IMG/VR virus record: IMGVR_UViG_3300027413_000002 | Length of the DNA stretch: 64,000 nt | Source: a virus | Reading direction: 5' to 3' (one strand) | In this document: piece by piece, positions 13,124 through 33,346 of the stretch | How positions within the stretch are numbered: position 1 is the first letter of the stretch | How the letters are laid out: each line of letters begins with the position of its first letter | Position numbers and translations under genes: made by a program | Notes under the pieces: model-generated | Databases searched by the model: none | Seen by the model: only the letters and a program-made list of their open reading frames with translations | Told to the model about the DNA's origin: nothing

Positions 13124-13711
13124 TTAGAACTTAACGACTACGCTTGTTCCCAAGAAATCGTCAGTCTTGTTGCCATCGCCATCTGTGTTGTATTCGTAAA
13201 ATACACCAACACTCAAAGCATCAGACAATGCATAATCTATTCCAAAATCATTTTGTGATTCATAGAACTCACCATCACTATACACGTCACTATCAATAGC
13301 AAACTTTGGTTTCAAGTCAATGTAAGCACTTAATTTGTCTGTGAGTTGATAATCTGCTGCAATAATTGGTTGCAGGTTTACAAAGTCATCCTTTGCATTT
13401 GACTCGTATGTTTTAATTTCAGTTCGAGGTTTCAGATAGAAATTACCAACTAGATCAATTTTCGGTGCAGTCAATCTATAACGATTCTCTACAGTTCCAC
13501 CACTATCTGTCCAACGATACGTGTAACCCCAACCTGCAAGTTTAGTGTCAAGTTGAACCATGTTATAATCAACGCCAGCAGTATATTTACGGAAAGTGAT
13601 AGATGAGTTTCCTGTTGTAAACTGAATATTGTTTTCGATGTAATCTTCAACGGCATGAGCAGGGGAAATAGAAAATGCGACTGCTGCAGCACCAAGAATC
13701 AATTTGTTCAT
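13124..13711 (-). CDS. outer-membrane beta-barrel protein (porin-like)
   Basis: Signal peptide ending AHA, alternating amphipathic strands, C-terminal Phe (VVVKF). Confidence 0.7.
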   Translation of the reverse strand: MNKLILGAAAVAFSISPAHAVEDYIENNIQFTTGNSSITFRKYTAGVDYNMVQLDTKLAGWGYTYRWTDSGGTVENRYRLTAPKIDLVGNFYLKPRTEIKTYESNAKDDFVNLQPIIAADYQLTDKLSAYIDLKPKFAIDSDVYSDGEFYESQNDFGIDYALSDALSVGVFYEYNTDGDGNKTDDFLGTSVVVKF

Positions 13712-13748
13712 ATGGATTAGTTTCCTAAAAGAGATATATTAAAATAAT

Positions 13749-14035
13749 GGGGACTTCTGTTGCTAGGCGTCCCCTGACCCCGAGAAATTATGCTGCTAGA
13801 GCAAAACCCTCATACGCGAAATTATCGTTTGCGTTTACTTTAGTTTCTTACGATTAAGGTTGCTTGCACACCTGTTCTCCACTTACCGAATCATCCCCTG
13901 TCGAACCTATTCACCCCCATCAAAAACACACTCTTCAACTTGTAACCAACCTGATCTTCCAGAATGTGTTTTTGGTGGAGGTGGCGGGAATCGCACCCGC
14001 GTCCAGAGCAACTTTAAGTTTGCTTCATCGAACCA
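13749..14035 (-). ncRNA. ssrA: circularly permuted two-piece tmRNA
   Basis: Acceptor piece ends GCGGGTGCGATTCCCGCCACCTCCACCA (CCA at 13973); 54-nt intervening segment; coding piece starts GGGGGTGAA at 13918; G3:U70 pair; tag ANDNFAYEGFALAA* at 13832-13788. Confidence 0.93.
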
Positions 14036-14037
14036 GT

Positions 14038-14071
14038 TATTTATAATACATCAAATGAGGTAAAATGTCAA
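14038..14071 (-). promoter_or_regulatory. overlapping sigma70-type (TTGACA-17-TATTAT) and late (TATAAATA) promoters for tmRNA
   Basis: TTGACA 14071-14066, TATTAT 14048-14043, TATAAATA 14045-14038. Confidence 0.7.
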
Positions 14072-15102
14072 GCACATTTACCACAAGTTAGTTTACAAAT
14101 ATCAAACTGCCAATCTTTTGAAATAGTATCTAACATACCAGTTTCATATATTTCTTTCGGGGTGTATTTTTCGAGACTATTGAAGTCTTCCGAATAACCC
14201 TTATCCAAATAGAAAGTTTTCGTGAAGCTGTCGTGTTTGTTGAAACGCCTCGACAGTTCGACAGAATGTGACATATGACAGCACGACCATAGTCTTTTAT
14301 CAGCCGATATGTAAATCTGATGAAAAAAATTAGAGTTACCAATAGAAGCATAGCAATATACTCCTCGATCCGAAGTGATTATATTAGGGGATTCCCAAAA
14401 CGACATTTCTTTAGGATTGCGTTCTAGATTATGGTATTCAAGTTTATCGGTAGTTGTAAGACCACTTGTTGTAGAAGCTGATGCTGGTTCTAATTCGTAA
14501 TCACCGTCCAAAATAAGCAGGTTTTTGTTACCAAACCTATCCGAAAATCTTGGTAAAAACCTCTTAAATCCATAATCTTTGGCAAGTTTAGATGCCTGTT
14601 CCTCTTCGTTCTCATTATGCTTGAACAGCGTCATAACCCAGTTAGCTGAACCGCCTGCATCTATATATGCTCTTGCGTTCCTTATCACAGTTTCGTATCT
14701 CGTGTTTCTTCGGTATTTACTGTGTGAATCATTATTTACGCCATCTATAGCAAAATCCACACGTACATTAGGACGAGTCCCCAACCATTTCCAGAAATCA
14801 ACGCTGAGACCACCACCATTTGTATTAATGGTGATATGTCTTCCCCCCAAAGCAAATATAAACTCTTTTGGGTGTGTGTGCATTACAATATCACCAAAGT
14901 TTCCGTTTACAAGAATACTCACTACTCTTGACATCCATTCATCTTCTAGCAATTTTTTAATATCTTTGGCTGACCATTCTGTAATTTCTAGCGTGGGGTC
15001 TGTGTTCATCGTTGTGTCATGCGTCCTTGTGCATTGAGGACACCTTGCATTGCAAGCTGTGGTAGGCTCTAGATGAATCGACATTGGAAGATGTGAACTC
15101 AT
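14068..15102 (-). CDS. radical SAM protein
   Basis: CNARCPQC, GNFGD, TNGG, FAIDG, C-terminal Cys cluster (SCC...CKLTC). Confidence 0.88.
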   Translation of the reverse strand: MSSHLPMSIHLEPTTACNARCPQCTRTHDTTMNTDPTLEITEWSAKDIKKLLEDEWMSRVVSILVNGNFGDIVMHTHPKEFIFALGGRHITINTNGGGLSVDFWKWLGTRPNVRVDFAIDGVNNDSHSKYRRNTRYETVIRNARAYIDAGGSANWVMTLFKHNENEEEQASKLAKDYGFKRFLPRFSDRFGNKNLLILDGDYELEPASASTTSGLTTTDKLEYHNLERNPKEMSFWESPNIITSDRGVYCYASIGNSNFFHQIYISADKRLWSCCHMSHSVELSRRFNKHDSFTKTFYLDKGYSEDFNSLEKYTPKEIYETGMLDTISKDWQFDICKLTCGKCA

Positions 15103-19017: not shown

Positions 19018-20454
19018 TTAAGATACGACCTTCACACCGTATCTTTTTTGAAATAAATCAGCATCTTTTCGACTATTTACCATCGGCTCGCCCTTAATAT
19101 TCAATGACGTATTCATCAACATAGGTGTTCCAGTATGTTTTTTGTATTGTGTAAGTAACCTATAAAGACCAGCATGCTGTTCTCTTGTGACAGTTTGTAC
19201 GCGACTGGTTCCATCTTTATGGACGATGGCAGGATATTTCTCGGGATCCTTCGCCTTTACGATAAATTGCATGTAAGGACTTTCAAAGTCCTTTTCAACA
19301 CAAAAATATTTATGAACATCCTCTTGACGAATGACTGGAGCGAATGGTCTGAACTCTTGGCGTTGTTTTATTTTATTGACAAGGTCTTGCATTTCCTTAC
19401 CTGTTGGGTTAGCAAGAAGACTTCTATTACCAAGTGCCCTTGGACCAAACTCAGCGCGACCGTTTGCAACACCAACAATATTGTTCTCCAATAATTCAGA
19501 GAGTGCTTCCTTGACTGGATATCTACCCTTTATTTCTTCCCCGAGGTATGGCGTTTTCCAATTCAACATCTGCCTCTCACCTGCAGCGATTGCTCCAATA
19601 GAACTTCCAGCATCTCCTGGATTTGGCATCACCCAAATATTCTTGAAGAACTTACTAATGTGTCTATTCGCAAGACAATTTAAAGCACAACCGCCCATAA
19701 GAACTAGATTATCTGATTTGGCGAGAGTTTCAGTGAGGCTTAGAAGTTTGATGAATTCTTGTTCGTAAACTCTTTGTGCAGATGCAGCTAAATCAAAATG
19801 ATCAGCTTGGGGGAAAGAGTTTCTACATCCACGATGAAAGTTAAACCCCGAACTGAGCATTGCGCTCATCTCTTCAACATGCCTTGGCTCTCCATACGCT
19901 GACATACCCATGAGGATATACTCGTCCTCGTTTGCTTTGAGTTGAACGCGATCCGTTATTGCTGAGTAGAAGAGTCCGAGGGATTGTGGGTAAACCCGTT
20001 TGCAAAGTTTTTTCCTGCTAATCTTACCGCTTTCATCAGTTGAATATAATGATATAGAAGTAGTGGTGAACTCACCAATAGCATCAATAACAAGAACGGC
20101 AGCTGAATCGAATTTAGAAGTAGCGAACCCAGCCGCTGCATGACTTTCGTGATGGTTTCCATACTTAATTTCTCCTTGTATACCATACTCACTCAGATAT
20201 TTACGAGGATTCATCCATTTGTTTGGTTGTCCTGCTTTATATTTTCTGAGTGCTTTTTTATATGGGTCTTCATACCAATGAATGATATCAGGTTTCCCAT
20301 ATGATAATGCTTGCTCTATCATTTCTTGATTGAGGTGTGCATCATTCTTCTTCCTGCTATATCTCTCGGTGTGACTAGCAAAAAGAATTTCATTATCTTT
20401 AACTACAGCAAGAGACCCATCATGAGTCCCTGCTGCAACGCCCCACTTAATCAT
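19018..20454 (-). CDS. carbamoyltransferase (NodU/CmcH family)
   Basis: HDGS, ERYSRKKND, HHESHAA, EFGPRALGNRSLLA, FRPFAP, HKDGTSRVQTV, NTSLN. Confidence 0.95.
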   Translation of the reverse strand: MIKWGVAAGTHDGSLAVVKDNEILFASHTERYSRKKNDAHLNQEMIEQALSYGKPDIIHWYEDPYKKALRKYKAGQPNKWMNPRKYLSEYGIQGEIKYGNHHESHAAAGFATSKFDSAAVLVIDAIGEFTTTSISLYSTDESGKISRKKLCKRVYPQSLGLFYSAITDRVQLKANEDEYILMGMSAYGEPRHVEEMSAMLSSGFNFHRGCRNSFPQADHFDLAASAQRVYEQEFIKLLSLTETLAKSDNLVLMGGCALNCLANRHISKFFKNIWVMPNPGDAGSSIGAIAAGERQMLNWKTPYLGEEIKGRYPVKEALSELLENNIVGVANGRAEFGPRALGNRSLLANPTGKEMQDLVNKIKQRQEFRPFAPVIRQEDVHKYFCVEKDFESPYMQFIVKAKDPEKYPAIVHKDGTSRVQTVTREQHAGLYRLLTQYKKHTGTPMLMNTSLNIKGEPMVNSRKDADLFQKRYGVKVVS

Positions 20455-20551
20455 AGATGAATGGATCCTTCTCCCGAAGTTCCTTCAAGCGTTTTTTAAA
20501 TGCGCGTTTTGCTCTCCATTCAGCATATTTTGTTTTAATCCATCCAACCAT
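20447..20551 (-). CDS. small basic protein upstream of carbamoyltransferase
   Basis: Hand-translated MVGWIKTKYAEWRAKRAFKKRLKELREKDPFIYD*; overlaps both neighbours. Confidence 0.7.
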   Translation of the reverse strand: MVGWIKTKYAEWRAKRAFKKRLKELREKDPFIYD

Positions 20552-21269
20552 TTTTCTCAAAATCCTCCTTTATTGTGTTCGACCACAGTTTAAAAACATC
20601 CCCATTGGGATGCAATCTATCCCTCGCCCTGTCTTCGTCGTTGTTTATCCACGCAAGAGTTTTACCCGAATCATCTATTTGTCTGGGAACATAATCCAGA
20701 TATCTCTTTATATTTAGCTGACGCATGGTGTTCATAATCTGTTTGTTTTGAAACAAATAATTATCATCTTTGATCCAGAATCTAGTATATGCCTGATTCT
20801 GTGCCCATGCACCCTCGTGCTGCACCCCCGTGTTTCCAATTTCAGGGTTAGAAAATTTCACATATCTATCTGGAGTGCTCCATTGAACCACAACCGCATA
20901 CGGGGTTACATTTTTTATGAGGTTTGCTGCGTTATATAACATAAACATATTTGATGACCCAGCAACACCAAGATTAATTACTGGTCTGCCGAGTTGCTTC
21001 TGAAGATGAGAAGATACTGTCATTTCTTGAGTCACACCAACACCCATCGTGCAAGAATCTCCAATAATTACAACAGAGTTTTTCCAGTCTATTGTATCCC
21101 ACTCATTTGTTCTGTAACCATCAGAATTAAGGTCATATGTTATTCTGACATCATGCCATTTCTCTCTCCAAGCACTGCATAATTTAGCATCTTCCCAATT
21201 CTCTGGGTTATCGGTCGCCATCCATTCAGGACTATTAAAATATGTTAAATTATTCCCCCTGATTAACAT
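20535..21269 (-). CDS. SGNH/GDSL-like protein
   Basis: YDLNSDGYR, GDSCTMG, NLGVAGSS, RDRLHP. Confidence 0.7.
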   Translation of the reverse strand: MLIRGNNLTYFNSPEWMATDNPENWEDAKLCSAWREKWHDVRITYDLNSDGYRTNEWDTIDWKNSVVIIGDSCTMGVGVTQEMTVSSHLQKQLGRPVINLGVAGSSNMFMLYNAANLIKNVTPYAVVVQWSTPDRYVKFSNPEIGNTGVQHEGAWAQNQAYTRFWIKDDNYLFQNKQIMNTMRQLNIKRYLDYVPRQIDDSGKTLAWINNDEDRARDRLHPNGDVFKLWSNTIKEDFEKNGWMD

Positions 21270-22119
21270 AACCCCTCCCACGTATTTCATCTGCCAACAC
21301 ATCAGAAAGAAACATGTGTCCTGTATTAGAAGGATGACCGCACGGTGTGATCAGACCTTCTGCAAAACCTTCTTTTTTATATCTATTGAAATATTCAAAC
21401 CCATAGATGGGTTGCAACTGATCTTCTTCTAAACCTGACTCTTGTTCTCTAACAAGAAGTTCCATTATTGTTCTGTTACCTCTAGGTCGGCAAAACAGAT
21501 CCCAATCGACAATATCTTTTAGATATTTTTTACTTTCTACAAAAATCCTGTCAGAAATAGACTGTTCATCGATCGCCAGATCAAATGCAGAGACAAGCAA
21601 AAGTTTTGCATTATTCACTTTACACCAGTTCTGAACTTCAGCAATATTTAATAAGCAATCAATTGCCTCCTGTTGAACACTGTTTCCAAACTCAGCATAT
21701 CCTTGCCAAAGTTTATTACCACTCATTTCTGGGAATATTGGTGTAAAATGATCTCGACTAATACCCGCATCTTTTACGACAAAATCAAATCTAGACATGC
21801 CACTCAAACAAAACACAACAATCTTATCAGAATCTGCATCTATCTTATTCATATACAGTTCTTTTGCAGCAGACCTGTTTCCCTTGCCAGACGAACCAAG
21901 GTTTATGGGAGTATACCCTATCTTTGTGGCAACGTGTGTGACCCAACTGTTAAGATTCTCTTCATCAATAATCCCAGGAATCTTGGTATCATGGTGATAA
22001 ACTCTGTCTCCATATTTTGCATAGAACTTTCGAGAAACCGAACCCTGTCCCTGCGTGAAACTATCACCAATTCCAATTAAATATTTACTCACCGAAATAC
22101 TCCTTATAATATTTCTCAA
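21250..22119 (-). CDS. SGNH/GDSL-like protein
   Basis: GDSFTQG, NLGSSGKGN, GHPS..GH. Confidence 0.7.
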   Translation of the reverse strand: MRNIIRSISVSKYLIGIGDSFTQGQGSVSRKFYAKYGDRVYHHDTKIPGIIDEENLNSWVTHVATKIGYTPINLGSSGKGNRSAAKELYMNKIDADSDKIVVFCLSGMSRFDFVVKDAGISRDHFTPIFPEMSGNKLWQGYAEFGNSVQQEAIDCLLNIAEVQNWCKVNNAKLLLVSAFDLAIDEQSISDRIFVESKKYLKDIVDWDLFCRPRGNRTIMELLVREQESGLEEDQLQPIYGFEYFNRYKKEGFAEGLITPCGHPSNTGHMFLSDVLADEIRGRGYVNQGE

Positions 22120-23263
22120 GTTCTACGTGTGCAACGTCAGGTTTTGATGAATTCTCTACGAGCGTATTGAAGTTGTGTTCTAGTACAGGGCGCATAGATT
22201 CATACCAAGATACCTTATCCTCAATAGAATGAATATATTTTAGAGTTTCAATGATTGCATCCATCCGCTCTGTATCGTCAAGAGTATCATACGATTCATC
22301 AAAGTAATCCGAGAATGTTTTATACCCTCGCCCCCTTAGTATTTCTAACTCACCCCTTCCTCCGAGAACAATGAATGGGTGATAACAAGCGATTGGTTTG
22401 AATACCTTTTCGCTCGTGAACGTAGATAATTCTCTTTCATAATACTGAGGTTCACTCACGACAGTAACAAATGATTTGAGAGCATAGTCATTGTGAATTC
22501 TACCCATGTAGAATTGCCAGTCTTTATCATGCTTTTCTCCAAGAATATAATGATCCCTCGAAGGGAAGCTGCACAAACCCTTGTCTAGAATATCAGCTTC
22601 TATCATCTTATCGAAAAACTTTTCGCGATGCAATCTTGGTCTTTTTTGTGGACAATTAAACGTCCAAACTTGATGCATATTCTTGACGCCAGTTCTTTTC
22701 TTGAGTGTCTTATATTCTATATTCTCATCTACTGTCGAAACTTGACTGTGTTGACGAATGGTGTTGACATATTCCTCAAACAAAGCATATGGCAAGCACT
22801 TAATTCTAGCAAAAACAGATCTATTGTTCGCCCATTCTTCGTATTGAGAATCTACCAACATATTACCCGTAATATAAACAATTGCTTGAGGAGGAATACT
22901 CAATCTACGACATTCATCGTGAAAAAACGAAAATAGCCATTCTTCATGATACCCCTCCAAAGAAAAGTCAATAAGAAACATGGCAGTTCCATCTCTGAGT
23001 TTTGCTAGATAATTTTCAGAAAGATAATCAAAGATAGATTTACCAGAAAGACCGAATCCTTTCGCCCAGTTATCAATCGCCCCATTAACACCAACAGAAA
23101 TCAAATAATTATAGTTGTCGTGCGTAATCAAATCAGATGGAAGCATCATCCGACACATAGTGTTTATCATTGGGCTTACTTGAAATCTTCCGCGACCATC
23201 AAGAATGTCGTCACAATCTATGAAATTTTCTCGAGTGGAAAAATCTTCAAACATAAAATTCAT
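22085..23263 (-). CDS. conserved marine-phage protein, possible glycosyltransferase
   Basis: C-terminal VVSE...SEKVFKPI..HPFIV...GYKTF..FDESYD block; GT call tentative. Confidence 0.5.
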   Translation of the reverse strand: MNFMFEDFSTRENFIDCDDILDGRGRFQVSPMINTMCRMMLPSDLITHDNYNYLISVGVNGAIDNWAKGFGLSGKSIFDYLSENYLAKLRDGTAMFLIDFSLEGYHEEWLFSFFHDECRRLSIPPQAIVYITGNMLVDSQYEEWANNRSVFARIKCLPYALFEEYVNTIRQHSQVSTVDENIEYKTLKKRTGVKNMHQVWTFNCPQKRPRLHREKFFDKMIEADILDKGLCSFPSRDHYILGEKHDKDWQFYMGRIHNDYALKSFVTVVSEPQYYERELSTFTSEKVFKPIACYHPFIVLGGRGELEILRGRGYKTFSDYFDESYDTLDDTERMDAIIETLKYIHSIEDKVSWYESMRPVLEHNFNTLVENSSKPDVAHVELEKYYKEYFGE

Positions 23264-23264
23264 A

Positions 23265-24281
23265 CTACATCAACCTATCTTTCCACGTGGTGGGAGTCTT
23301 GTCGTTCACGATTTCTAATTTATAAGCATAATCAAATGCCTTTGGTCCAACCTCTACAATATAGTCGACAGTCTTCTTGACTGCTTCTGGTAACGAGGTT
23401 GATGTTTTATAATCTAACAGCCTTCTTGCCTTTGTACTACTACAGAGAGCAAACTTAACTTCTTGAGGTCTTTTATCTTTGTATATGTATTCGCCTTCAA
23501 ACTTGCATTTTTCAGCAACGAGATCTGCCAACTCATTAATGGTAACAGCCCCTTCATCTGGTCCAATATTTATTACTTCATTCACAACATCATCATCGAG
23601 TGCCATCTTTGTCAGGCAAGAGACGCAATCAGCAACGTATGAGAAACATCGTTTCTGCTCACCGTCTCCATAAATGATCGCAGGTTTACCCTGTAGATTT
23701 CTATTTGCCATAATACTCACAACATTGCGGTATGGGTCATCAAACCTCTGACGCTCACCGATAATGTTATGGGGGACTGCTATGTTATATTCCATTCCAT
23801 GGACATCTGCAAGGCACTTCAACGTATCTTCTGCAGCAACCTTCGCGATACCATAAGGATCGACTGGCATCGGTTTCATATCTTCTTTAAACGGATTTAA
23901 TGTCCCAGATTGTTTACCATACCGAGCCATACTACTACAGAACACAAACCGCTTCACGTTGTTTGCAATACTTGCGCTGATCACTGAAACACTTGCTTCA
24001 TAGATGTTACGAGTAATAAACGATGGGCTGAACACAGAGAATCCCTCGTGCGCAGTTGCAGCACAATGAACAACAATATCAATATCTTCGTGTGACATCA
24101 TGTCACTCATTAAGATCTGATCTCGGCAGTCAGCCTGATAAAATTTTACGTCGCGGTGTAGATTACAGCGGAATCCACCAATAAGATTATCCACCCCGAC
24201 CACATCGTGACCAAGATGAATAAATTTATCAGCTAGATGACTCCCCAGAAATCCTGCTACACCTGTTATAAAAATCTTCAT
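23265..24281 (-). CDS. NAD-dependent nucleotide-sugar epimerase/dehydratase
   Basis: ITGVAGFLGSH, SSMARYG, PYGIAK, GDGEQKRCFSYV. Confidence 0.92.
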   Translation of the reverse strand: MKIFITGVAGFLGSHLADKFIHLGHDVVGVDNLIGGFRCNLHRDVKFYQADCRDQILMSDMMSHEDIDIVVHCAATAHEGFSVFSPSFITRNIYEASVSVISASIANNVKRFVFCSSMARYGKQSGTLNPFKEDMKPMPVDPYGIAKVAAEDTLKCLADVHGMEYNIAVPHNIIGERQRFDDPYRNVVSIMANRNLQGKPAIIYGDGEQKRCFSYVADCVSCLTKMALDDDVVNEVINIGPDEGAVTINELADLVAEKCKFEGEYIYKDKRPQEVKFALCSSTKARRLLDYKTSTSLPEAVKKTVDYIVEVGPKAFDYAYKLEIVNDKTPTTWKDRLM

Positions 24282-25626
24282 ATTCGGGGAATGTCTCCAA
24301 GAAATTTGTTTTACGTCTTCGATCGTGCTCGTTAAACCAATTGTAGAAATCTTTTCGTCCTTCGTTCAATTTTTCTTCACCATAATCACTGGTAGCCATA
24401 TAATCGTGGACTCGTCTGAACTTCTCAAACTCAATCGTCTGGAACATAGTCGGGTCTGCATCATCAACATTTTCTTCAATGAAGTCAAGGCACTCTTTCA
24501 TATAAGGCATGAATTCATCTTTCGGTAGAATGTTCATATCATAATGCAAAGGTTCTTTGAGGTATGGTGTGTCGAATCTGATTGTTCTCATTGACGTGCT
24601 GTCTGGAACGATAATTCCTTCGTATTGTTTACGCCACTCTAGAATCTTAACCAATAAAGATTTGAACGTGGAAACAGTCAATGCATTAAATGTAATCATA
24701 AGATTGATTGGCGTCTTCGCTGTGTTGGCATAATAATGGAAGTTCCTCTCCCATAAATCCAGCTTCAATCCTGTCCTTATATACTCCGCTCTTTCATTCC
24801 AACAGTCAATACTCGTGTACAACGCAAAACTCTTAACAGCATTTTTCTCTCTGATCAGGTTCACATTTGCAGCAAGATTATCAACAAACTTCTCTTTCAC
24901 GCCCAGATTTGTATTTATGTTTAACTCGAGGTGTGGTTGTGGGTTTCGGTGCAATTCCTCGAACAACCTCCATGTAGACTTATGCATCAGAGGTTCGCCA
25001 CCAGTCAACCGCAAGATACTCAGAGTCTTGACAACTTCTGGATACCACTTCCACCATGCTTCAACATATGGGTTTTCGTGTTCTTCATATGCTTTAAACC
25101 AATCAATATCCAATCGGTGATTCTTAACCATATCATATGGTCCAAACTTCTTAATCTCTGACATAAATCGAGAGGAAGAATTAGGATGACAATATCCGCA
25201 TTTAAAGTTACACTCATTGCTGAATGCTAATTCGATGTAATCTGGGTTAACATCAAACTTCCAGTCTGACGCGATGATGTCATTGAGTCTTTCTGGTCTA
25301 TATAGAGATGCGGATCTGATCACGCGGTCAGAGATATAATCCTCACCCATATCCTCGACGTTCCAACAATAATTACACCCAACACACTTCTCTCCATCGA
25401 GCATCTGTTTACGTTCTTCTTTTTTGTGGGGTGTGTTGTGCAATTGACTTGGATTTTCCGCTAGACCTTCCAACGGGATCTTATGTGGTGCTGGGTGATA
25501 GCACGAGTGAGTCATACCAGTCTGCAGATAGATGGTTGTGTGATACCATTTAGCAAAACAAAATGTCGGGCTAACCATATCATCCATTGCATCGCGCAAC
25601 AGCAACGCTTTATCTAAATCACTCAT
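24229..25626 (-). CDS. radical SAM protein with N-terminal twitch-like Cys domain
   Basis: FCFAKW..HSCYH..CNYCW; CNFKCGYC; TGGEPL; NTNL. Confidence 0.9.
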   Translation of the reverse strand: MSDLDKALLLRDAMDDMVSPTFCFAKWYHTTIYLQTGMTHSCYHPAPHKIPLEGLAENPSQLHNTPHKKEERKQMLDGEKCVGCNYCWNVEDMGEDYISDRVIRSASLYRPERLNDIIASDWKFDVNPDYIELAFSNECNFKCGYCHPNSSSRFMSEIKKFGPYDMVKNHRLDIDWFKAYEEHENPYVEAWWKWYPEVVKTLSILRLTGGEPLMHKSTWRLFEELHRNPQPHLELNINTNLGVKEKFVDNLAANVNLIREKNAVKSFALYTSIDCWNERAEYIRTGLKLDLWERNFHYYANTAKTPINLMITFNALTVSTFKSLLVKILEWRKQYEGIIVPDSTSMRTIRFDTPYLKEPLHYDMNILPKDEFMPYMKECLDFIEENVDDADPTMFQTIEFEKFRRVHDYMATSDYGEEKLNEGRKDFYNWFNEHDRRRKTNFLETFPEYEDFYNRCSRISGESSS

Positions 25627-26320: not shown

Positions 26321-26359
26321 TATAAATAGGATGATACTATATTGCGCGTCAAAAGTCAA
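26321..26359. promoter_or_regulatory. divergent control region: + late promoter (26321-26328) for csg/cyclase operon; - TTGACT-17-TATCAT (26359-26331)
   Basis: Both motifs read directly. Confidence 0.7.
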
Positions 26360-26389
26360 GCACTATGGTGTCAAAAAGAGAGAGATAAA

Positions 26390-26671
26390 ATGACTGAAGT
26401 ATTTAACCTCATAAGTGAGTTGGGGTTCCCAATCGCGTCTGCGATTATTGGTGGCTTCTTCATGTTCCTTACGCTCAAATATATTATGTCTGGTGTCATT
26501 GACCAAGTGAAGAGTATGCACGGAATCGTGAGTGCCCTTGATAATCGCATCAAAACGATGAACCATGATATAATTCGTCTTGATACAACAATGTGTGTCG
26601 TACTGGGGATAAGACCCGACTTGAATCGTATATCGAGAGCAGACGGTAAGACGGATGCGCGGAGAGACTAA
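26390..26671 (+). CDS. small membrane protein (GFPI motif, paralog of 27153)
   Basis: ELGFPIA + one TM helix + coiled coil with DIIRL; GAGAGAG leader. Confidence 0.75.
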   Translation: MTEVFNLISELGFPIASAIIGGFFMFLTLKYIMSGVIDQVKSMHGIVSALDNRIKTMNHDIIRLDTTMCVVLGIRPDLNRISRADGKTDARRD

Positions 26672-26674
26672 ACT

Positions 26675-27151
26675 ATGATCGACCCAGTATCAGCAGTAAT
26701 GACAGCAACAGCTGCATTCAATGGAATAAAGAGGATAGTAGAAGCGGGACAAAACGTAGAACAAACATTCGCACAGATCGGCAAGTGGTATGGTGCGGTG
26801 TCAGACTTCAACGAAGCAAAGAGACAAATGGAAAATCCCCCGCTGTTTAAAAAATTGGTTGCGACCATGTCTGTTGAAGAAGAGGCAATTAATGTCTATA
26901 TTCAAGAGAAGAAAATAAAAGAGCAGGAATCTCAGTTGAGAGAATTATTGCTCTATGCATATGGTCCAGCTGCATATACAGAACTAACTCAATTGAGAAG
27001 AAAGATAAAAGAAGACCGAGAAAGAACAATCTACGCGCAAGAAAGAAAACGTAGAGCATTTGCATGGAACAGCATAGGTTGGTTGTCGGTTTCTCTTATG
27101 GGATATGGGTTATATTTGATGGTAGCAGCAATGATTTCGATGGCTCCCTAA
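26675..27151 (+). CDS. coiled-coil protein with C-terminal TM helix
   Basis: MIDPVSA N-terminus, charged helical core, hydrophobic tail. Confidence 0.7.
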   Translation: MIDPVSAVMTATAAFNGIKRIVEAGQNVEQTFAQIGKWYGAVSDFNEAKRQMENPPLFKKLVATMSVEEEAINVYIQEKKIKEQESQLRELLLYAYGPAAYTELTQLRRKIKEDRERTIYAQERKRRAFAWNSIGWLSVSLMGYGLYLMVAAMISMAP

Positions 27152-27152
27152 T

Positions 27153-27410
27153 ATGGATATTGTTACAGCCATAAAGGATTTCGGATTCCCCATAGTTGCT
27201 GCTGTCGGCATGCTGTATATGATATACTATGTTTGGAGAACGATAACAGAACAGATTGAGTCAAATTTAAGCGATGCACAAACAACCCTGATTGGGCTGA
27301 TTGATAGAGTTAGGATGTTGGATAATGACATCATAAGATTGCAACAGAAACTTGACACGGCAATCGAAGTGAAAGGATTGAAAGATGAAGACAACAAGAA
27401 ACGGAAGTGA
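27153..27410 (+). CDS. small membrane protein (GFPI motif)
   Basis: DFGFPIVA + TM + DNDIIRL. Confidence 0.75.
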   Translation: MDIVTAIKDFGFPIVAAVGMLYMIYYVWRTITEQIESNLSDAQTTLIGLIDRVRMLDNDIIRLQQKLDTAIEVKGLKDEDNKKRK

Positions 27411-27930
27411 ACAGCGAGCGTGGCGAATGATGCGAAAATCAGTAGGCGTCCGAGTTTGGGCATTGAGTGATTTGATTCAAGCATTCGTTCTTGGCGTTGG
27501 GTTTGCTTTGATGTTTTCATTAATATCTGACCTCGCATATGGTGCGCCAATAGAACATAAATTTAAGTCGCCATCATTTAGTGGCATCAATCAGAGTTCT
27601 CACTATTTGACAATTGAAAATCAAGAGACAAGTCGTAAAGATGCTCTGAAGCAAGAAATTGAAGACTTGCAAAAACAACTAGATCGGGATGCAGAGAATA
27701 CAACGCTCGCAAAGTTTATAAGAAATGTAGAGAGTCGGATTTACTCTACACTTTCCAGACAACTGGTTGAAGGTATGTTTGGTGAGAATCCGAGTAATGA
27801 AGGATCCTTCGATATTGAAGGAACAGGGATAACATACGTCAAAGATGGCGATATTGTGGAGTTGACCATAACAGATGAGAACGGTAAAGTTACTGTCATC
27901 ACTATTCCTATTGGGGATTTTGGGATCTAG
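27385..27930 (+). CDS. csgF: curli assembly component CsgF-like
   Basis: Hydrophobic signal, then HKFKSPSFSG...LTIENQE (cf. CsgF FQFRNPNFGG); C-terminal TITDENG..TVITIP; next to csgG; start uncertain. Confidence 0.82.
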   Translation: MKTTRNGSEQRAWRMMRKSVGVRVWALSDLIQAFVLGVGFALMFSLISDLAYGAPIEHKFKSPSFSGINQSSHYLTIENQETSRKDALKQEIEDLQKQLDRDAENTTLAKFIRNVESRIYSTLSRQLVEGMFGENPSNEGSFDIEGTGITYVKDGDIVELTITDENGKVTVITIPIGDFGI

Positions 27931-28696
27931 TATATCTGGATGTACCACGGTTGGCAGCAACTGGGAGATTCCTACAGAAAAAGAAGCAACTGTTCAGGTG
28001 ACATTACTCGAACAGAAACTGATAGATGTACCACCTCCAATAAGAAGACCCTCTGTGGCTTTGTATAGATTCACAGATCAGACGGGACAGAAAAAACAAA
28101 ACGCGAATGGTGGAACATCATTCAGCACTGCGGTTACTCAGGCTCCAGATGTATATCTGATCAGAGCACTGAAGAGAGCGGCTGGCGGTAAGTTCTTCCA
28201 AGTCATTGATCGTTCTATTTTAGATGACCTCACCAAAGAGAGGCAACTGATAAGACAGACAAGGCAGAGTTATAATGGAGAAGGTGCAAAGAAATTACCC
28301 GCGCTTACATTTGCAGGAATGCTTGTAACAGGTGGTATAGTTGGTTATGACCATGCTATGGATTCTGGTGGTGCTGGTGCAAGATATCTCGGTATCGGAA
28401 CTAGCAGAGAATTTAGTCGAGACACAGTGACTATCAATATACGTTTGGTGAGTGTCGCGACAGGGGAGGTATTACTCGAGGTAATATCAAGCAAAACAAT
28501 ACTATCGACTGCTTATGGTGGAGATGTATTTAAATTTATAGAGAAAGGCACTGAACTTGTCGAAATAGAGTCTGGTGTCGCTTCAAATGAGAGCGTATCT
28601 ATTGCCACGCAAAGAGCAATTGAAACAGGTGTTCTGGAAGTCATCGAAAGAGGAAACTCTCTCGGATTCTGGACATACAACGGGAGTAACAAATGA
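27875..28696 (+). CDS. csgG: curli secretion channel lipoprotein CsgG
   Basis: Lipobox ISGC; VALYRFTDQTGQ, FSTAVTQ, LTKERQLIR, GGAGARYLGIG, DTVTINIRLVSVATGEVL. Confidence 0.92.
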   Translation: MRTVKLLSSLFLLGILGSSISGCTTVGSNWEIPTEKEATVQVTLLEQKLIDVPPPIRRPSVALYRFTDQTGQKKQNANGGTSFSTAVTQAPDVYLIRALKRAAGGKFFQVIDRSILDDLTKERQLIRQTRQSYNGEGAKKLPALTFAGMLVTGGIVGYDHAMDSGGAGARYLGIGTSREFSRDTVTINIRLVSVATGEVLLEVISSKTILSTAYGGDVFKFIEKGTELVEIESGVASNESVSIATQRAIETGVLEVIERGNSLGFWTYNGSNK

Positions 28697-29427
28697 ACAC
28701 GTTACAAAAAAGACTATTTGTGATGCTGTTCCTACTAAACGCAGGGACATCGCCTTTGTTGGCTGATAATGCGATCTACATTGATCAAATTGGATCAGGT
28801 GTAGATATTGATATTACTCAAGACGGTAGTGGTAACAAAGTTGGCGGGAGTGCCGACGATGACACTAAAATGATAGTGAGTGGTGACAACATCACCATGA
28901 GCATCGATGCGGTCGGGTCAAGTAATTCCATCATCGGTAACATAGTTGGAGAAGGTAGCACCATCGACTTTGATATAGTCGGTAGCACCAACTCAATTGA
29001 CTTTAATATTGATCCAACAAATACATATGGAGCCACTGATGGCGATTACACGCTGAATATATCTGGCGGTGACAACGACCTTGAATTGAACATCGGCACA
29101 GAAGATGCTGCAAGCAACGGTACATTTGATTGGATTGTTGATGGCGACTTCAACACAGCAACAATTAATATAGATGTTGGCAGCTTTAATAACACTGTTG
29201 ACTGGGTTGGTGATAACAACACCATAACGTATGATGCAGATGGTTATGATGGACACACGTTAAATGTGTTGGGTGATGGTAACTACTGGAACCTGACAGT
29301 CGATCAACAATCAACTCTGCAAGTAGATGAATTGGAGATAGAACTTGATGGTGATGGAACGTCTCATACGCCTGCAACGATTTGCATTAGCCAGTCTGAT
29401 TCTGGTACTGCCACAGGTTGCCAATAG
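28693..29427 (+). CDS. secreted curlin-like beta-solenoid repeat protein
   Basis: Signal peptide; DNAIYIDQIG; ~22-aa repeats with GxxN (QDGSGN, VGSSN, VGSTN, GGDN, DGDFN, VGDNN, GDGN); C-terminal Cys pair. Confidence 0.72.
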   Translation: MNTLQKRLFVMLFLLNAGTSPLLADNAIYIDQIGSGVDIDITQDGSGNKVGGSADDDTKMIVSGDNITMSIDAVGSSNSIIGNIVGEGSTIDFDIVGSTNSIDFNIDPTNTYGATDGDYTLNISGGDNDLELNIGTEDAASNGTFDWIVDGDFNTATINIDVGSFNNTVDWVGDNNTITYDADGYDGHTLNVLGDGNYWNLTVDQQSTLQVDELEIELDGDGTSHTPATICISQSDSGTATGCQ

Positions 29428-30463
29428 TAGTGATGTTGGGCTGGTCGACCGAGCAGTTGGTTGGCGTCAAATTGTCAGAGCAGAAAAAGAATTAGAACCA
29501 GCAAAAGGTTCTGATGTTATATCGAAAGACGATCTTCGCACAGGGGACGGTCGTATGCAAGTGAAGTTTGTAGATGAAAGCAAACTTCGCATGACTGAAC
29601 ACACACGCATTGTGATAGATAATGTTGTATTCGATAAAGACCCTAGTAAGTCAGATCTGGCTATGACCTTTGCCCAAGGGACTGCTCGGTTTATTACAGG
29701 TTCCTTGGGTACAATCGAAAAAGAAAATATCAGACTCAGAACACCAACTGCATCTATCGGTATTCGCGGAACAGACTTTACAGTGACTGTCGATGAGTTC
29801 GGTCGGACTCTAGTCATCCTCCTTCCAGATATGAATGGAATATCATCGGGAGAGATTATTGTTGCAACGATGACAGGAGAAGTCAGACTCAATAAGCCAT
29901 TTGAATCTACAACAACCTCTGTTGGAGAACTACCGCCAACAAACCCAGCAATTTTAGACCTCTCCCTTGACATGCTAAACAATATAATGATTATCAATCC
30001 ACCCACAGAAAGAATGTCTGTTGATGAATTTTACAGTACAACAGAAGCAGATAAAAACATAAACCCACTCGACATTGACTTCTTAGACGAAGCACTCCTA
30101 GAAGACGAGGAACTCGAAAGGGATTATCTTGAATACACCGAACTCGACATAAATTTCCTTGACGTTGATCTCCTAGAGAATCTTCTGGACTCATACTCAG
30201 ATTTAGATGCTGAACTACTCAGAGAAGAACAACAAACAGGAGACGTTGACATAGAAGGTACATCCGAGGGTTTCGATACCGTCACACAGGTTGTAACAAT
30301 AGTCGACGGTGAGAAGGTAAATGTAAGGAGAGAAGTTTCATCTATTGTAAACATATCTGTAGATTCTAGCGCGGAAACAGAAATAGTCATCGAGCAAGAC
30401 GGTAAGATGTTAGATCCAATCGTCATAAACGGAACAACCAACACAATAAATATAACACAATGA
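29345..30463 (+). CDS. FecR-domain periplasmic protein with acidic linker
   Basis: DDLRTGDGRMQVKFVDES, GTARF, RTPTASIGIRGTDF; LDxxFLD-rich linker. Confidence 0.87.
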   Translation: MMVMERLIRLQRFALASLILVLPQVANSSDVGLVDRAVGWRQIVRAEKELEPAKGSDVISKDDLRTGDGRMQVKFVDESKLRMTEHTRIVIDNVVFDKDPSKSDLAMTFAQGTARFITGSLGTIEKENIRLRTPTASIGIRGTDFTVTVDEFGRTLVILLPDMNGISSGEIIVATMTGEVRLNKPFESTTTSVGELPPTNPAILDLSLDMLNNIMIINPPTERMSVDEFYSTTEADKNINPLDIDFLDEALLEDEELERDYLEYTELDINFLDVDLLENLLDSYSDLDAELLREEQQTGDVDIEGTSEGFDTVTQVVTIVDGEKVNVRREVSSIVNISVDSSAETEIVIEQDGKMLDPIVINGTTNTINITQ

Positions 30464-32283
30464 AGATGTGGCATGTCATAATAACTGTCGCGGTGTTAGT
30501 CGCGGTCAGACTCGTAGATCCTTTTCTGTTAGAAAGCTCTCGTTTGAGCTATTTCGATTTCTTGCAGCGAGGACAGGATGTCATCACATCAGAACAAATT
30601 GTCCTAGTTGATATTGATGAGCAGACTCTCGAGAAGTTTGGACAATACCCGATCCCAAGAAGCACGATGGCTGATGAGGTTTATAAACTCGGCAACTCTA
30701 TCATCGCATTCAACATATTGTTCTCAGAACCAGACCGTTTGGGTGGAGACGATGACTTTGGTGATGTATTATTTGAGAAGAATGCTCTCGTAGCCATCGC
30801 TCCTTCACAAAAGACCAACACCGAGTATCGCCCGAAAGGAACTGGATACGCGACATTTGGCGACCGTGGGGCAGAGGAGATACGCCCAGAACTATCGGGG
30901 ATGCTATTTGCCCGACCAGAGATTATGGACGCTGTGGTGGGATATGGAACAATCTCATCAACGCCAGACGCTGATGGAATCACGCGAAGGATACCTCTCC
31001 TCGAGAACTTTGAAGGTAAACTATACCCTGCACTCGCGCTCGATATCCTCAGAGTTGCAGCTGGAGACGTGTCATATCAAATCAAGACTGATGATCTCGG
31101 AATAAGGTTTGTTCGCGTTCCAAAGTTTGATGTGATCAAAACAGATGACATGGGTAACGTGAATATTGCCTTCTGGAACGAGTTTCCAAGAACGTCATTC
31201 ACAAACATATACAACATACCTGAAGGAAGTATCGCGATCGTCGGTGCAACCTTCGAAGGATCCAGTCTAATCTCCACCCCAGTCGGTGCAATGTACCCAC
31301 ATGATGTGCAAGCCAACCTTTTGAAGACTATGATTGATGGGGTGACGATTTCCAGACTGCCAGAGTTTAAAATTTATGAAATCGCGCTGACTATCATCGG
31401 GTCTTTGCTTGTAATCTTCATGCTGAGTAAGATTTCAATCCTGATCAGCGGTGTTGGCTTCGGAATTTTAGTATGTTTTGCAGTTTTTGGTGCAAATTAT
31501 GCCTTTGAGACGCATTTTTTACTGTTCGACCCGATTTTTGGCGTGTTGACGCTGGTTTTAGTGTTTGCACACGGCAGTTTTGTTCAATTTTACACAAACT
31601 TCAAGCAAAAACAGATGATCAAGGGTCAGTTCGGTACATATTTGTCGCCAGATATGGTTGAGATGCTTGCAAACGACCCATCTCTGATGAAACTGGGTGG
31701 CGAGCGCAAAGAAATGACCTTCTTGTTCATGGATATCTGTGGATTCACCCCGATATCTGAGCATTACAAGAACAATAACGATCCTGAAGGTTTGGTCGTA
31801 TTAATTAATGACTATTTGAACCAAATGACCAATATAATTTTGGAAAATGGCGGCACGATCGATAAATACATGGGCGATTGTATCATGGCATTCTGGAATG
31901 CTCCACTACCTTGTGAGAACCATGCCGAGATGGCAGTCAAATCCGCTATCCAAATAGAGAAAAAAACAGATGAACTTAGAAGACGATATTGTGAACAGGG
32001 TCTACCCCCCATCAATGTTGGTACTGGTATCAATACAGGTGATTGCATTGTTGGTAATATGGGCAGTGAGTCACGTTTCGACTATTCTGTCATTGGAGAC
32101 GCAGTTAATCTCGCAGCCAGACTCGAAGCAACAGCTGCAAGAGGAGACTATCTTGATTACAAGACCATCTACTCAAGCAACACAATGGAGCAACTTAAAA
32201 CTACCGCATCGAGATCAATAGGTAAGATTAAGGTGAAAGGTAAAGAAGAAGAAATAGAAATCTACACACCTGAGTATAAATAG
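30460..32283 (+). CDS. CHASE2-domain class III adenylate cyclase
   Basis: IVLVDIDE..L..FGQYP.PR, DADGITRRIPL, three TM helices, FMDICGFT, TIDKYMGDCIMAFWNAP, DYSVIGDAVNLAARLE. Confidence 0.95.
   Translation: MKMWHVIITVAVLVAVRLVDPFLLESSRLSYFDFLQRGQDVITSEQIVLVDIDEQTLEKFGQYPIPRSTMADEVYKLGNSIIAFNILFSEPDRLGGDDDFGDVLFEKNALVAIAPSQKTNTEYRPKGTGYATFGDRGAEEIRPELSGMLFARPEIMDAVVGYGTISSTPDADGITRRIPLLENFEGKLYPALALDILRVAAGDVSYQIKTDDLGIRFVRVPKFDVIKTDDMGNVNIAFWNEFPRTSFTNIYNIPEGSIAIVGATFEGSSLISTPVGAMYPHDVQANLLKTMIDGVTISRLPEFKIYEIALTIIGSLLVIFMLSKISILISGVGFGILVCFAVFGANYAFETHFLLFDPIFGVLTLVLVFAHGSFVQFYTNFKQKQMIKGQFGTYLSPDMVEMLANDPSLMKLGGERKEMTFLFMDICGFTPISEHYKNNNDPEGLVVLINDYLNQMTNIILENGGTIDKYMGDCIMAFWNAPLPCENHAEMAVKSAIQIEKKTDELRRRYCEQGLPPINVGTGINTGDCIVGNMGSESRFDYSVIGDAVNLAARLEATAARGDYLDYKTIYSSNTMEQLKTTASRSIGKIKVKGKEEEIEIYTPEYK
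32275..32282 (+). promoter_or_regulatory. late promoter TATAAATA
   Basis: 5 nt before ATG 32288. Confidence 0.7.
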
Positions 32284-32287
32284 AGGT

Positions 32288-33346
32288 ATGGCGAAGTTTA
32301 ACCGAGGAGATGTCTCGGAAGGAATATTGGCTGCAGCAATCACTGCTAGATTCCTATCGAAGACAAAGAGAATCAATGACACCGATGTCACATCTGTGAT
32401 ACGGAAACTTGCGCGTCCAGCAAATATGGGTTCGAAGGGTCTGACCTCTACATCTTACTTCACCTCCGCGAACGAAAATCCAAAGATTAACGATGAAGTC
32501 TGTTGTGTCATTAACTTGGCAGAGATCAATATGCAGGCTTTGACCGACCTCAAGATCTACCAACAGAAAGAAATAAGAGATATTGTAACAGCCAGTGCTG
32601 CATTTGCAAACGGAATGTATGTAATGCAGTGGGCAGACTTAATGTATACCAACAACCAGAAAAACAAGATCGAAGTCTTATCTGAAGGGTTGATGGATCA
32701 AACTGGAACAAAGGTAGATCTCAAGATACGAATAGACGACAAACCTTGTTCTATTGGTATCTCTCTGAAATATGGAGACGTGAAGCAATTCGGTCAGGTT
32801 GGTGGCTCTAGTTTTAAGAGTATGAAGAGTTTGTTCGAACCTCTTGGTGTAAAATTCAGCACAGATTTCGAGAACAAGTATACCGACAAAATATCTAAAA
32901 GAGAGATAGCTGACGGTCTAACAATGGCGTATTCCGAAGCAGTGACACAAATGAACAAAAAGCAACAAAAGGTTCTGTTGAAATCTCTGGCTGACTTTAT
33001 GAAATATCATGCCACGCTGAATGAAGATGAGGTTGCCCTTGTCCAGCTGAATCGATCTGAAGCAGGTGTATACGATTTTGGTAAACTAGAACAAAAGCTG
33101 ATGGGTCAAGAAGTCGAACTAGAACTGACTGACGGTATAACTGAGAAATTGGCTGGATATGCTGGGAGCAATAAGATCCCGAAGATAAATTTCCGAATCA
33201 AAAGAAACAATGAAATCCTGTTCACCATCAGATTGAAACTTGAAGGTAACAGGATAAATTCAAAGGGCAAGAGATTACCGCTTGTCGTCAGAAACTACAT
33301 TGAAAAAGGCAAGGCAACAACCCAGTTGTTGATGGAAACAAGTTAA
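32288..33346 (+). CDS. hypothetical protein, possible PD-(D/E)XK nuclease
   Basis: GDVSEG, TKVDL...ISLK pattern. Confidence 0.55.
   Translation: MAKFNRGDVSEGILAAAITARFLSKTKRINDTDVTSVIRKLARPANMGSKGLTSTSYFTSANENPKINDEVCCVINLAEINMQALTDLKIYQQKEIRDIVTASAAFANGMYVMQWADLMYTNNQKNKIEVLSEGLMDQTGTKVDLKIRIDDKPCSIGISLKYGDVKQFGQVGGSSFKSMKSLFEPLGVKFSTDFENKYTDKISKREIADGLTMAYSEAVTQMNKKQQKVLLKSLADFMKYHATLNEDEVALVQLNRSEAGVYDFGKLEQKLMGQEVELELTDGITEKLAGYAGSNKIPKINFRIKRNNEILFTIRLKLEGNRINSKGKRLPLVVRNYIEKGKATTQLLMETS

Follow-up and report, generated by a model that had tools for sequence, protein, structure and literature searches.

Genes csgF and csgG of the curli secretion pathway are annotated in the Pelagibacter phage HTVC008M and were first noted as such by Zaragoza-Solas et al. 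2020 (PMC7029224); they were discussed in that study and by Buchholz et al. 2022 (PMC9004378), in main texts that contain neither FecR, nor a cyclase, nor CHASE2. Wittmers et al. 2022 (PMC9599517) described a 'viral T8SS region' (T8SS, type VIII secretion system) with the order HK-CsgF-CsgG-CsgA/B-FecR-second CsgA/B-AC, which is present in podo- and myoviral pelagiphages, shows alphaproteobacterial affinities, is globally abundant, accounting for ~0.1% of viral proteins in GOV2.0, and was seen in metatranscriptomes. The same authors found this phage arrangement to be absent from bacterial T8SS operons and also described a variant without the second curlin gene; in their work, the small proteins are labelled histidine kinase ('HK'), FecR is labelled an iron regulator, and the term CHASE2 has 0 occurrences. 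Here we analyse a block of this kind at positions 26321-32283 of IMG/VR record IMGVR_UViG_3300027413_000002, whose entire analysed stretch of 64,000 nucleotides (hereafter the window) belongs to a marine T4-like myovirus that has not been cultured. The block is almost certainly the published pelagiphage viral T8SS cassette, here a slightly reduced member, and the novelty implied by a preliminary description of this DNA was mistaken, as FecR and the cyclase had been published within the viral block in 2022. The object being already known, our analysis sharpens the functional question rather than adding a new object.

The gene order of the published region is retained in this marine phage, with small protein(s), CsgF, CsgG, curlin-like protein, FecR and cyclase following one another and the second curlin gene missing. 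The closest isolates are HTVC008M and the Methylophilales phage Melnitz (Kyanoviridae), to which nucleotide similarity is patchy only; the block proteins share 35-49% identity with those of the two isolates and up to 93% with those of uncultured relatives. HTVC008M (KC465899 7181-13807) and Melnitz (MZ577097 gp97-104), likewise marine T4-like viruses, possess an identical gene set in identical order, whereas the window lacks the second curlin gene, carries a 158-residue insert and has the block inverted relative to the neighbouring genes. In GenBank (50,697 phage records), neither the small protein nor CsgG nor the CHASE2 cyclase occurs outside these two isolates. The cassette was found in at least 597 IMG/VR contigs; a search for cyclase homologues returned 7939 matches, the best 120 of which are all viral relatives at least 69% identical, and sequences matching the operon at 95% identity or more were present in 19 marine metagenome studies and six RNA libraries.

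The phage genes form one strictly conserved unit. Profile searches of phage loci placed CsgG beside CsgF in 67/67 cases, beside the curlin-like gene in 69/69, beside FecR in 65/65 and beside the cyclase in 34 of 36, with 32 of the 34 cyclases co-oriented and 2 convergent. Furthermore, all cyclase-anchored loci with enough upstream DNA contain the small protein, CsgF, CsgG, the curlin-like gene and FecR in the same order. The association of fecR and the cyclase with csgF/G, on which the preliminary description had staked its proposal, therefore withstood this check. Two phage loci (L123, L139) contain FecR without the cyclase, and this presence of FecR with the T8SS genes in the absence of a cyclase speaks for a role of FecR together with the pore or the fibre. 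In distant relatives, including HTVC008M and Melnitz, an extra gene lies between FecR and the cyclase, in some of them a true curlin-repeat gene, which the clade of the window does not have. We regard the block as one functional unit because of its co-conservation, its single late promoter and its overlapping reading frames.

The whole block, down to the small proteins known only from phages, was also encountered in contigs of metagenome-assembled genomes (MAGs; L177-L188, L193, L196, L203, L207, L210 and L224 of the genome_contigs set), which bear labels such as Maricaulis, Pelagibacter, Neomarinimicrobiota, Sphingobacteriales, Synechococcus and Planctomycetaceae, among others, two of the contigs being 121 and 142 kb long. 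Most likely, these contigs are phage genomes binned into bacterial MAGs.

Comparison with bacterial loci suggests that the two halves of the block have separate cellular origins, since bacterial CsgG loci are without FecR and cyclase genes and CHASE2-cyclase loci are without T8SS genes. The closest bacterial CsgG proteins belong to ordinary curli operons (~60 loci, including Microvirga, Methylobacterium, Hyphomonas, Mesorhizobium and Tenacibaculum) with CsgF and curlin-repeat neighbours, and none of these loci has FecR or a cyclase within 8 kb. CHASE2 cyclases, on the other side, are present at E <= 1e-40 in 77 of the 151 Alphaproteobacteria sampled, and none of 38 such alphaproteobacterial loci contains CsgG, CsgF or curlin-like genes. 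In ~15 of these 38 loci, a FecR gene of either orientation, as detected with a phage-derived profile, adjoins the cyclase gene, and in 6 it shows the phage arrangement, preceding the cyclase gene directly and on the same strand. Such pairing in bacteria speaks for FecR acting together with CHASE2.

The CHASE2 cyclases of S. meliloti need the outer-membrane protein NsrA for sensing an external protein signal (PMC13001267, PMC7529298), a rhizobial precedent to which the preliminary description had rightly pointed. A FecR-domain gene, smc02177, adjoins cyaD1 (PMC5498481), and in Burkholderia a LysM-FecR gene adjoins a CHASE2 histidine kinase gene (PMC5192318). Judged from its sequence, the phage block would share with the NsrA/CyaK, CyaD1 and CyaD2 systems of S. 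meliloti an inner-membrane CHASE2 sensor, a FecR neighbour and cyclic AMP (cAMP) as output. However, the outer-membrane partner in the NsrA system and in the bacterial pairs is a beta-barrel of the NsrA or Slam type, whereas the phage operon has only CsgG/CsgF; the cells also have a Crp-type receptor, Clr, whereas none was found for the phage. The cellular FecR partners are furthermore much larger proteins of 262-1903 residues, in which an N-terminal FecR domain is followed by adhesin-type domains or repeats (cadherin-like, Big_9, VWA, Calx-beta, Laminin_G, RTX or TPR). Thus, the phage block looks like a cellular FecR/CHASE2 envelope sensor, its outer-membrane partner replaced by the curli pore.

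Six of the bacterial cyclase loci also encode a 437-497-residue TPR and Slam-family outer-membrane protein (PF04575 in L286; the other five are full-length homologues at 1e-12 to 1e-29), which results in a Slam/FecR/CHASE2-cyclase triad in alphaproteobacterial genomes (L286:3516-9848, L279:4384-9869, L295:7629-12966, L292:7807-17558, L289:7750-12941 and L296:4698-9947). The FecR protein of L286 ends in a weak TbpB C-lobe-like domain, a domain type exported by Slam proteins. Our literature search found no paper that links Slam/DUF560 with FecR/CHASE2 or describes the triad. A 1213-residue FecR-TPR protein from Microvirga (L264) resembles the published NsrA in length and position and has no similarity to the Slam-type proteins; it remains a lead. 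Directly 3' of the CHASE2 cyclase in L279 (9950-11617, plus strand), we observed an NDH-2-like pyridine nucleotide-disulphide oxidoreductase fused to a cNMP_binding domain (1.1e-17), possibly a direct, non-transcriptional cAMP effector.

The secretion half of the phage block is well preserved. CsgG residues 19-268 align to the E. coli CsgG structure 3x2r (4.4e-39), with a lipobox, ISGC, at residues 20-23. CsgF, for which an internal ATG near 27427 may be the actual start, has a signal sequence followed by FKSPSFSG, an instance of the motif F-x-[SN]-P-x-F-x-G that is present in 114 of 115 phage CsgF proteins and that we take, from published E. coli structures only, to be the CsgG-binding segment; a phmmer search of CsgF against the PDB gave no match. 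The curlin-like protein was modelled by AlphaFold2 as an all-beta solenoid (predicted local distance difference test, pLDDT, 83.4; predicted template modelling score, pTM, 0.79), whose best VIA match among 48,161 chains is Pontibacter korlensis CsgA 8c50 (Z 18.3, 208 residues aligned, 21% identity, root-mean-square deviation (rmsd) 8.7); the E. coli CsgA fibril 8enq scored Z 11.1 and other beta-helices Z 15-16, and Foldseek found nothing for the model in the PDB at E <= 0.001. Its family has an invariant Q-x-G/G-x-x-N pattern, and a profile comparison with 8c50 gave E 0.065. We call the protein curlin-like because its sequence falls under the cut-off of Pfam Curlin_rpt (15.1 bits as against 20.7), which the second paralogue of relatives clears (L061, 32.5 bits); the clade of the window has a single curlin-like gene, without separate nucleator and major subunit.

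With the classical curli genes of E. coli and Salmonella (csgBAC-csgDEFG) and the reduced curli operons of Alphaproteobacteria, the phage has in common the CsgG lipoprotein channel, the N-terminal motif of CsgF and a secreted Q-x-G-x-x-N repeat protein with a predicted solenoid fold, whereas its operon is without CsgE, CsgD and CsgC, has one sub-threshold curlin-like gene, and adds FecR, the CHASE2 cyclase and small membrane proteins. For CsgE, there was no PF10627 match in five related phage records and none among the open reading frames of the operon, the whole window not having been scanned for csgE or csgD; alphaproteobacterial curli operons were also reported to be without CsgE (PMC9599517). 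By their sequences, CsgG, CsgF and the curlin-like protein look functional as an intact set for fibre export.

The FecR protein consists of a signal peptide, a FecR domain (~28-200), an acidic disordered linker (~210-300) and a C-terminal beta domain (~300-370; model pLDDT 75.6). The predicted FecR domain matches the cell-surface signalling domain of PupR (6ovm, Z 15.2, rmsd 2.6, 137 residues aligned; Foldseek 6ovk 9.7e-5), a periplasmic fold in common with the FecIRA and PupIRB systems. In contrast to these, the signal peptide of the phage protein, as modelled, runs straight into the FecR domain, with neither an N-terminal cytoplasmic anti-sigma domain nor a transmembrane anchor of that type, and the operon encodes no extracytoplasmic function (ECF) sigma factor and no TonB-dependent transducer; the protein should not be read as an iron regulator. 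Two ideas about its C-terminus were rejected. A relation to curlin repeats found no backing, as hhalign of the FecR and curlin-like families gave a probability of 0.8%, and the suggestion of an adhesin anchor came from a Foldseek match to 5ix9 that falls on the FecR domain itself (26-120, Z 7.2) and is too weak.

The stop codon of the FecR gene overlaps the start of the cyclase gene by 4 nucleotides. The cyclase comprises a transmembrane helix, a periplasmic CHASE2 domain (~22-320), a transmembrane bundle and a catalytic domain (412-602), the corresponding hydrophobic segments being found in the sequence. Its catalytic domain is closest to P. aeruginosa CyaB (3r5g, 1.3e-35), and it contains the metal-binding aspartates D425 (FMD) and D473 (GD), the adenine-specifying K469 (DKY) with S543, and the transition-state residues N550 and R554 (VNLAAR). 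All six catalytic residues are conserved in 121 family members (Ser/Thr at 543), so that the catalytic motifs are indeed intact, as the preliminary description had held, and the enzyme looks catalytically competent.

That description had likewise reported the late promoter, CsgF, CsgG with its lipobox, the curlin-like protein, FecR and the CHASE2 cyclase, all of which we found in place (Table 1); missing from it were the three genes with which the operon opens.

Table 1. Features of the viral T8SS cassette and the gene that follows it, in positions of the window.
Feature	Position	Strand	Basis
T4-type late promoter box TATAAATA	26321..26328	+	exact match, in front of operon
Small bitopic membrane protein 1, 93 aa	26390..26671	+	phrog_18771 7.2e-31
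158-aa protein, C-terminal transmembrane helix (tail-anchored)	26675..27151	+	phrog_32327 1.4e-6; hydrophobic residues 137-158
Small bitopic membrane protein 2, 85 aa, paralogue of protein 1	27153..27410	+	phrog_18771 7.7e-26
CsgF homologue	27385..27930	+	Pfam CsgF 2.6e-15, above cut-off
CsgG outer-membrane lipoprotein, curli secretion channel	27875..28696	+	Pfam CsgG 1.6e-44
Secreted curlin-like beta-solenoid, 244 aa, presumed T8SS substrate	28693..29427	+	AlphaFold2 model
Exported FecR-fold protein	29345..30463	+	Pfam FecR 3.7e-11
Membrane CHASE2 class III adenylate cyclase	30460..32283	+	Pfam CHASE2 8.9e-33, Guanylate_cyc 9e-19
Next gene, 352-aa protein, phrog_3560 (function unknown)	32288-33346	+	own TATAAATA at 32275-32282

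A small membrane protein lies 5' of CsgF in 61 of 61 phage loci with enough flank, and no protein of the phrog_18771 type was found in the bacterial CsgG and CHASE2 loci examined. Protein 1 has an N-terminal transmembrane helix (hydrophobic segment at residues 11-35) followed by a coiled coil, and belongs to no Pfam family. The 158-residue protein is a clade-specific insert between the two small proteins, shared among the relatives only with L007, L012 and L019. Weak matches of the small proteins to a PHROG holin family (2e-4 to 4e-4, with 4e-4 for protein 1) are accompanied by no match to a Pfam holin family, and the operon is without an endolysin gene. As for the published 'HK' label (PMC9599517), none of 41 members, 85-115 residues long, matches any Pfam kinase family at E <= 0.1, and judging by their sequences the small proteins should not be read as histidine kinase.

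The late promoter box occurs in 11 exact copies in the window as against 2.2 expected, a number reached by 0 of 100 shuffles. The plus-strand open reading frames from 26390 to 32283 overlap or are separated by gaps of at most 4 nucleotides, minus-strand genes flank them on both sides, and the GC skew turns positive across 26-34 kb; a scan of 25.5-34 kb for terminators and sigma-70 promoters gave results no better than shuffles. In four RNA libraries, contigs span the whole operon and start at 26345-26387, just 3' of the late promoter, a weak hint that agrees with the published metatranscriptome detection; such contigs are no proof of transcription, nor of its level, strand or ends, and DNA carry-over is possible. 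We also observed in four RNA libraries that the contig over the first half of the operon stops at 29607-30086, inside the FecR gene, with the 3' part of FecR and the cyclase on separate contigs; no terminator-like site stands out there, the break at 29.6-30.1 kb may be an assembly effect, and we do not take it as evidence. The box that precedes the next gene overlaps the end of the cyclase gene. The 352-residue protein encoded there has neither a Pfam match nor, by phmmer, a PDB match; because its gene has its own promoter and occurs in none of the block's relatives, we place it outside the block. On the left, the minus-strand flank 19018-25626 encodes a Nol-like carbamoyltransferase, a nucleotide-sugar epimerase and a radical SAM protein, auxiliary genes of the surface-sugar type, and fits the hypervariable host-recognition island described for pelagimyophages.

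What could such a cassette do in the infected cell? Transcribed late, it would put two modules into the envelope: the CsgG/CsgF outer-membrane channel with the secreted curlin-like solenoid as its substrate, and a sensor pair made of the exported FecR-fold protein and the inner-membrane CHASE2 adenylate cyclase. Taken together, the occurrence of FecR with the pore genes and the bacterial FecR/CHASE2 pairing make it the simplest reading that FecR bridges both. By analogy with the cellular systems, we tentatively propose, as a possibility that falls somewhat short of being probable, that FecR bridges the surface structure to CHASE2 and couples the state of this structure to cAMP synthesis. The FecR domain would stay periplasmic and touch the CHASE2 domain, and the acidic linker and the C-terminal domain would extend as far as the CsgG/CsgF channel or the fibre, or pass through, so that secretion, fibre engagement or contact would switch cAMP synthesis late in infection. 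A more specific version, which we consider unlikely, is a sensor of contact or secretion state in which FecR is held in or threaded through an ungated CsgG/CsgF channel, and the pulling, blocking or loading of the fibre is reported to CHASE2. Triggers might be, for instance, cell-cell contact or the adsorption of another virion, and cAMP would act on an unrecognised receptor to adjust late infection; the analogy here is with bacterial FecR-headed adhesins, which are apparently held by Slam-type or type I translocators.

Several observations weigh against a bridging FecR. The trans-envelope sensor of the preliminary description is reasonable by analogy with bacterial FecR/CHASE2 pairs that have outer-membrane translocators and surface domains, but all contacts between the proteins of the block are inferred, as are the signal and the target of cAMP; a predicted complex of the periplasmic CHASE2 domain (22-320) with mature FecR scored 0.00, which allows no verdict either way. 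In bacteria, the FecR-CHASE2 pairing is frequent, not obligatory. The C-terminal domain of FecR, which would have to reach the channel, had no informative structural match (Z ~3.5), and a search of the ESM Atlas gave no usable match. According to the current view, T8SS substrates are singled out through an N-terminal segment and travel unfolded; FecR has, as modelled, a folded N-terminal domain and shows no detectable similarity to the curlin-like protein. Plain fibre-making, furthermore, accounts for the T8SS half of the block with no need for a signal to cross the pore.

The weakest point of the sensor reading is its cAMP output. The cNMP_binding domain (PF00027) was found in none of three related phage records (63-86% complete) nor in one Pelagibacter MAG, and in only 2 of 61 Pelagibacter-family genomes, which weakens the suggestion of the preliminary description that the phage acts on host CRP regulons. 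Because cNMP_binding is nearly absent there, the output of the sensor would be without a known reader if the host were SAR11, a host that is not established. At 13697-14075 on the minus strand, the window encodes a two-piece (permuted) transfer-messenger RNA (tmRNA) of the alphaproteobacterial type with the tag peptide ANDNFAYEGFALAA; a TATAAATA box lies on that strand at 14038-14045, and Melnitz has been reported to carry a similar tmRNA (PMC9004378). The tmRNA hints at an alphaproteobacterial host. Small-genome Alphaproteobacteria (0.8-1.7 Mb, e.g. G122, which also belongs to the Pelagibacter-family sample) carry the class III catalytic domain in proteins of ~730-760 residues, with E values of ~1e-42 to 1e-60, and small-genome hosts may use cAMP via an unrecognised receptor.

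The published explanations include fibre production (Zaragoza-Solas et al. 2020; Wittmers et al. 2022): a curli-like amyloid would coat the infected cell and serve in aggregation ('sibling capture') or in blocking superinfection, and FecR and the cyclase would just regulate or time fibre output rather than read the outside. With CsgG, CsgF and a signal-peptide-bearing curlin-like subunit all intact, the claim of the preliminary description that the phage builds a sensor rather than biofilm fibres is not supported, and fibre production also accords with the second paralogue of relatives that passes the Curlin_rpt cut-off, with the ordinary curli operons in which the closest bacterial CsgG proteins reside, and with phage variants that keep T8SS and FecR without the cyclase, as also noted in PMC9599517. 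Yet no transcription factor or cAMP receptor through which the cyclase could regulate the late operon was found in the related records or in the Pelagibacter-family genomes, and the operon is driven by a late promoter of constitutive type. Moreover, Melnitz-infected cultures showed no clumping (Buchholz et al., PMC9004378), the bacterial FecR/CHASE2 pair senses external or envelope cues and is not a curli regulator, and the single curlin-like gene of the window's clade leaves no separate nucleator and major subunit. We regard fibre production with a purely regulatory FecR and cyclase as a serious, if rather doubtful, explanation.

Two further proposals give the channel itself the leading role. 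In the first, associated with Buchholz et al. 2022 (PMC9004378), a CsgE-less CsgG/CsgF would behave in the manner of a pinholin or secretin and, with the two small proteins, would determine how the envelope is permeabilised and when lysis occurs, with cAMP or the consumption of ATP as part of the timer. The late promoter, the small transmembrane and coiled-coil proteins that invariably head the operon, their weak holin likeness and the failure to find CsgE in five relatives all fit such a role in lysis, but CsgG, as an outer-membrane protein, is unable to depolarise the inner membrane, the holin likeness is marginal and without a Pfam match, and the curlin-like protein, FecR and the cyclase are given no role although they are as conserved as the pore; we hold this improbable. 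The same lack of CsgE in the relatives might instead leave CsgG as an ungated channel that imports cofactors or macromolecules, an idea raised in PMC7029224 and PMC9599517, or that releases cAMP as a signal between infected cells, and exported cAMP would fit the scarcity of intracellular cNMP_binding receptors. Nonetheless, cAMP must still cross the inner membrane, the transported compound is purely hypothetical, and CsgF, the curlin-like substrate and FecR remain unexplained, which makes transport through an open channel very improbable.

The cassette is among the most widespread accessory modules of marine phages, with thousands of matching protein clusters, and it gives streamlined hosts an envelope machine not encoded by themselves. 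FecR and the cyclase are best viewed as a CHASE2 envelope-sensor pair taken from cells, in which the curli pore has replaced the original outer-membrane partner. A relay from the surface structure through FecR to CHASE2 would, if true, make the cassette the first trans-envelope second-messenger sensor built by a phage, and would help to explain CHASE2 domains. If, in addition, the version based on contact or secretion state holds, it would provide a general logic for FecR and CHASE2 in bacteria, namely an outer-membrane translocon, a tethered FecR protein and a CHASE2 sensor.

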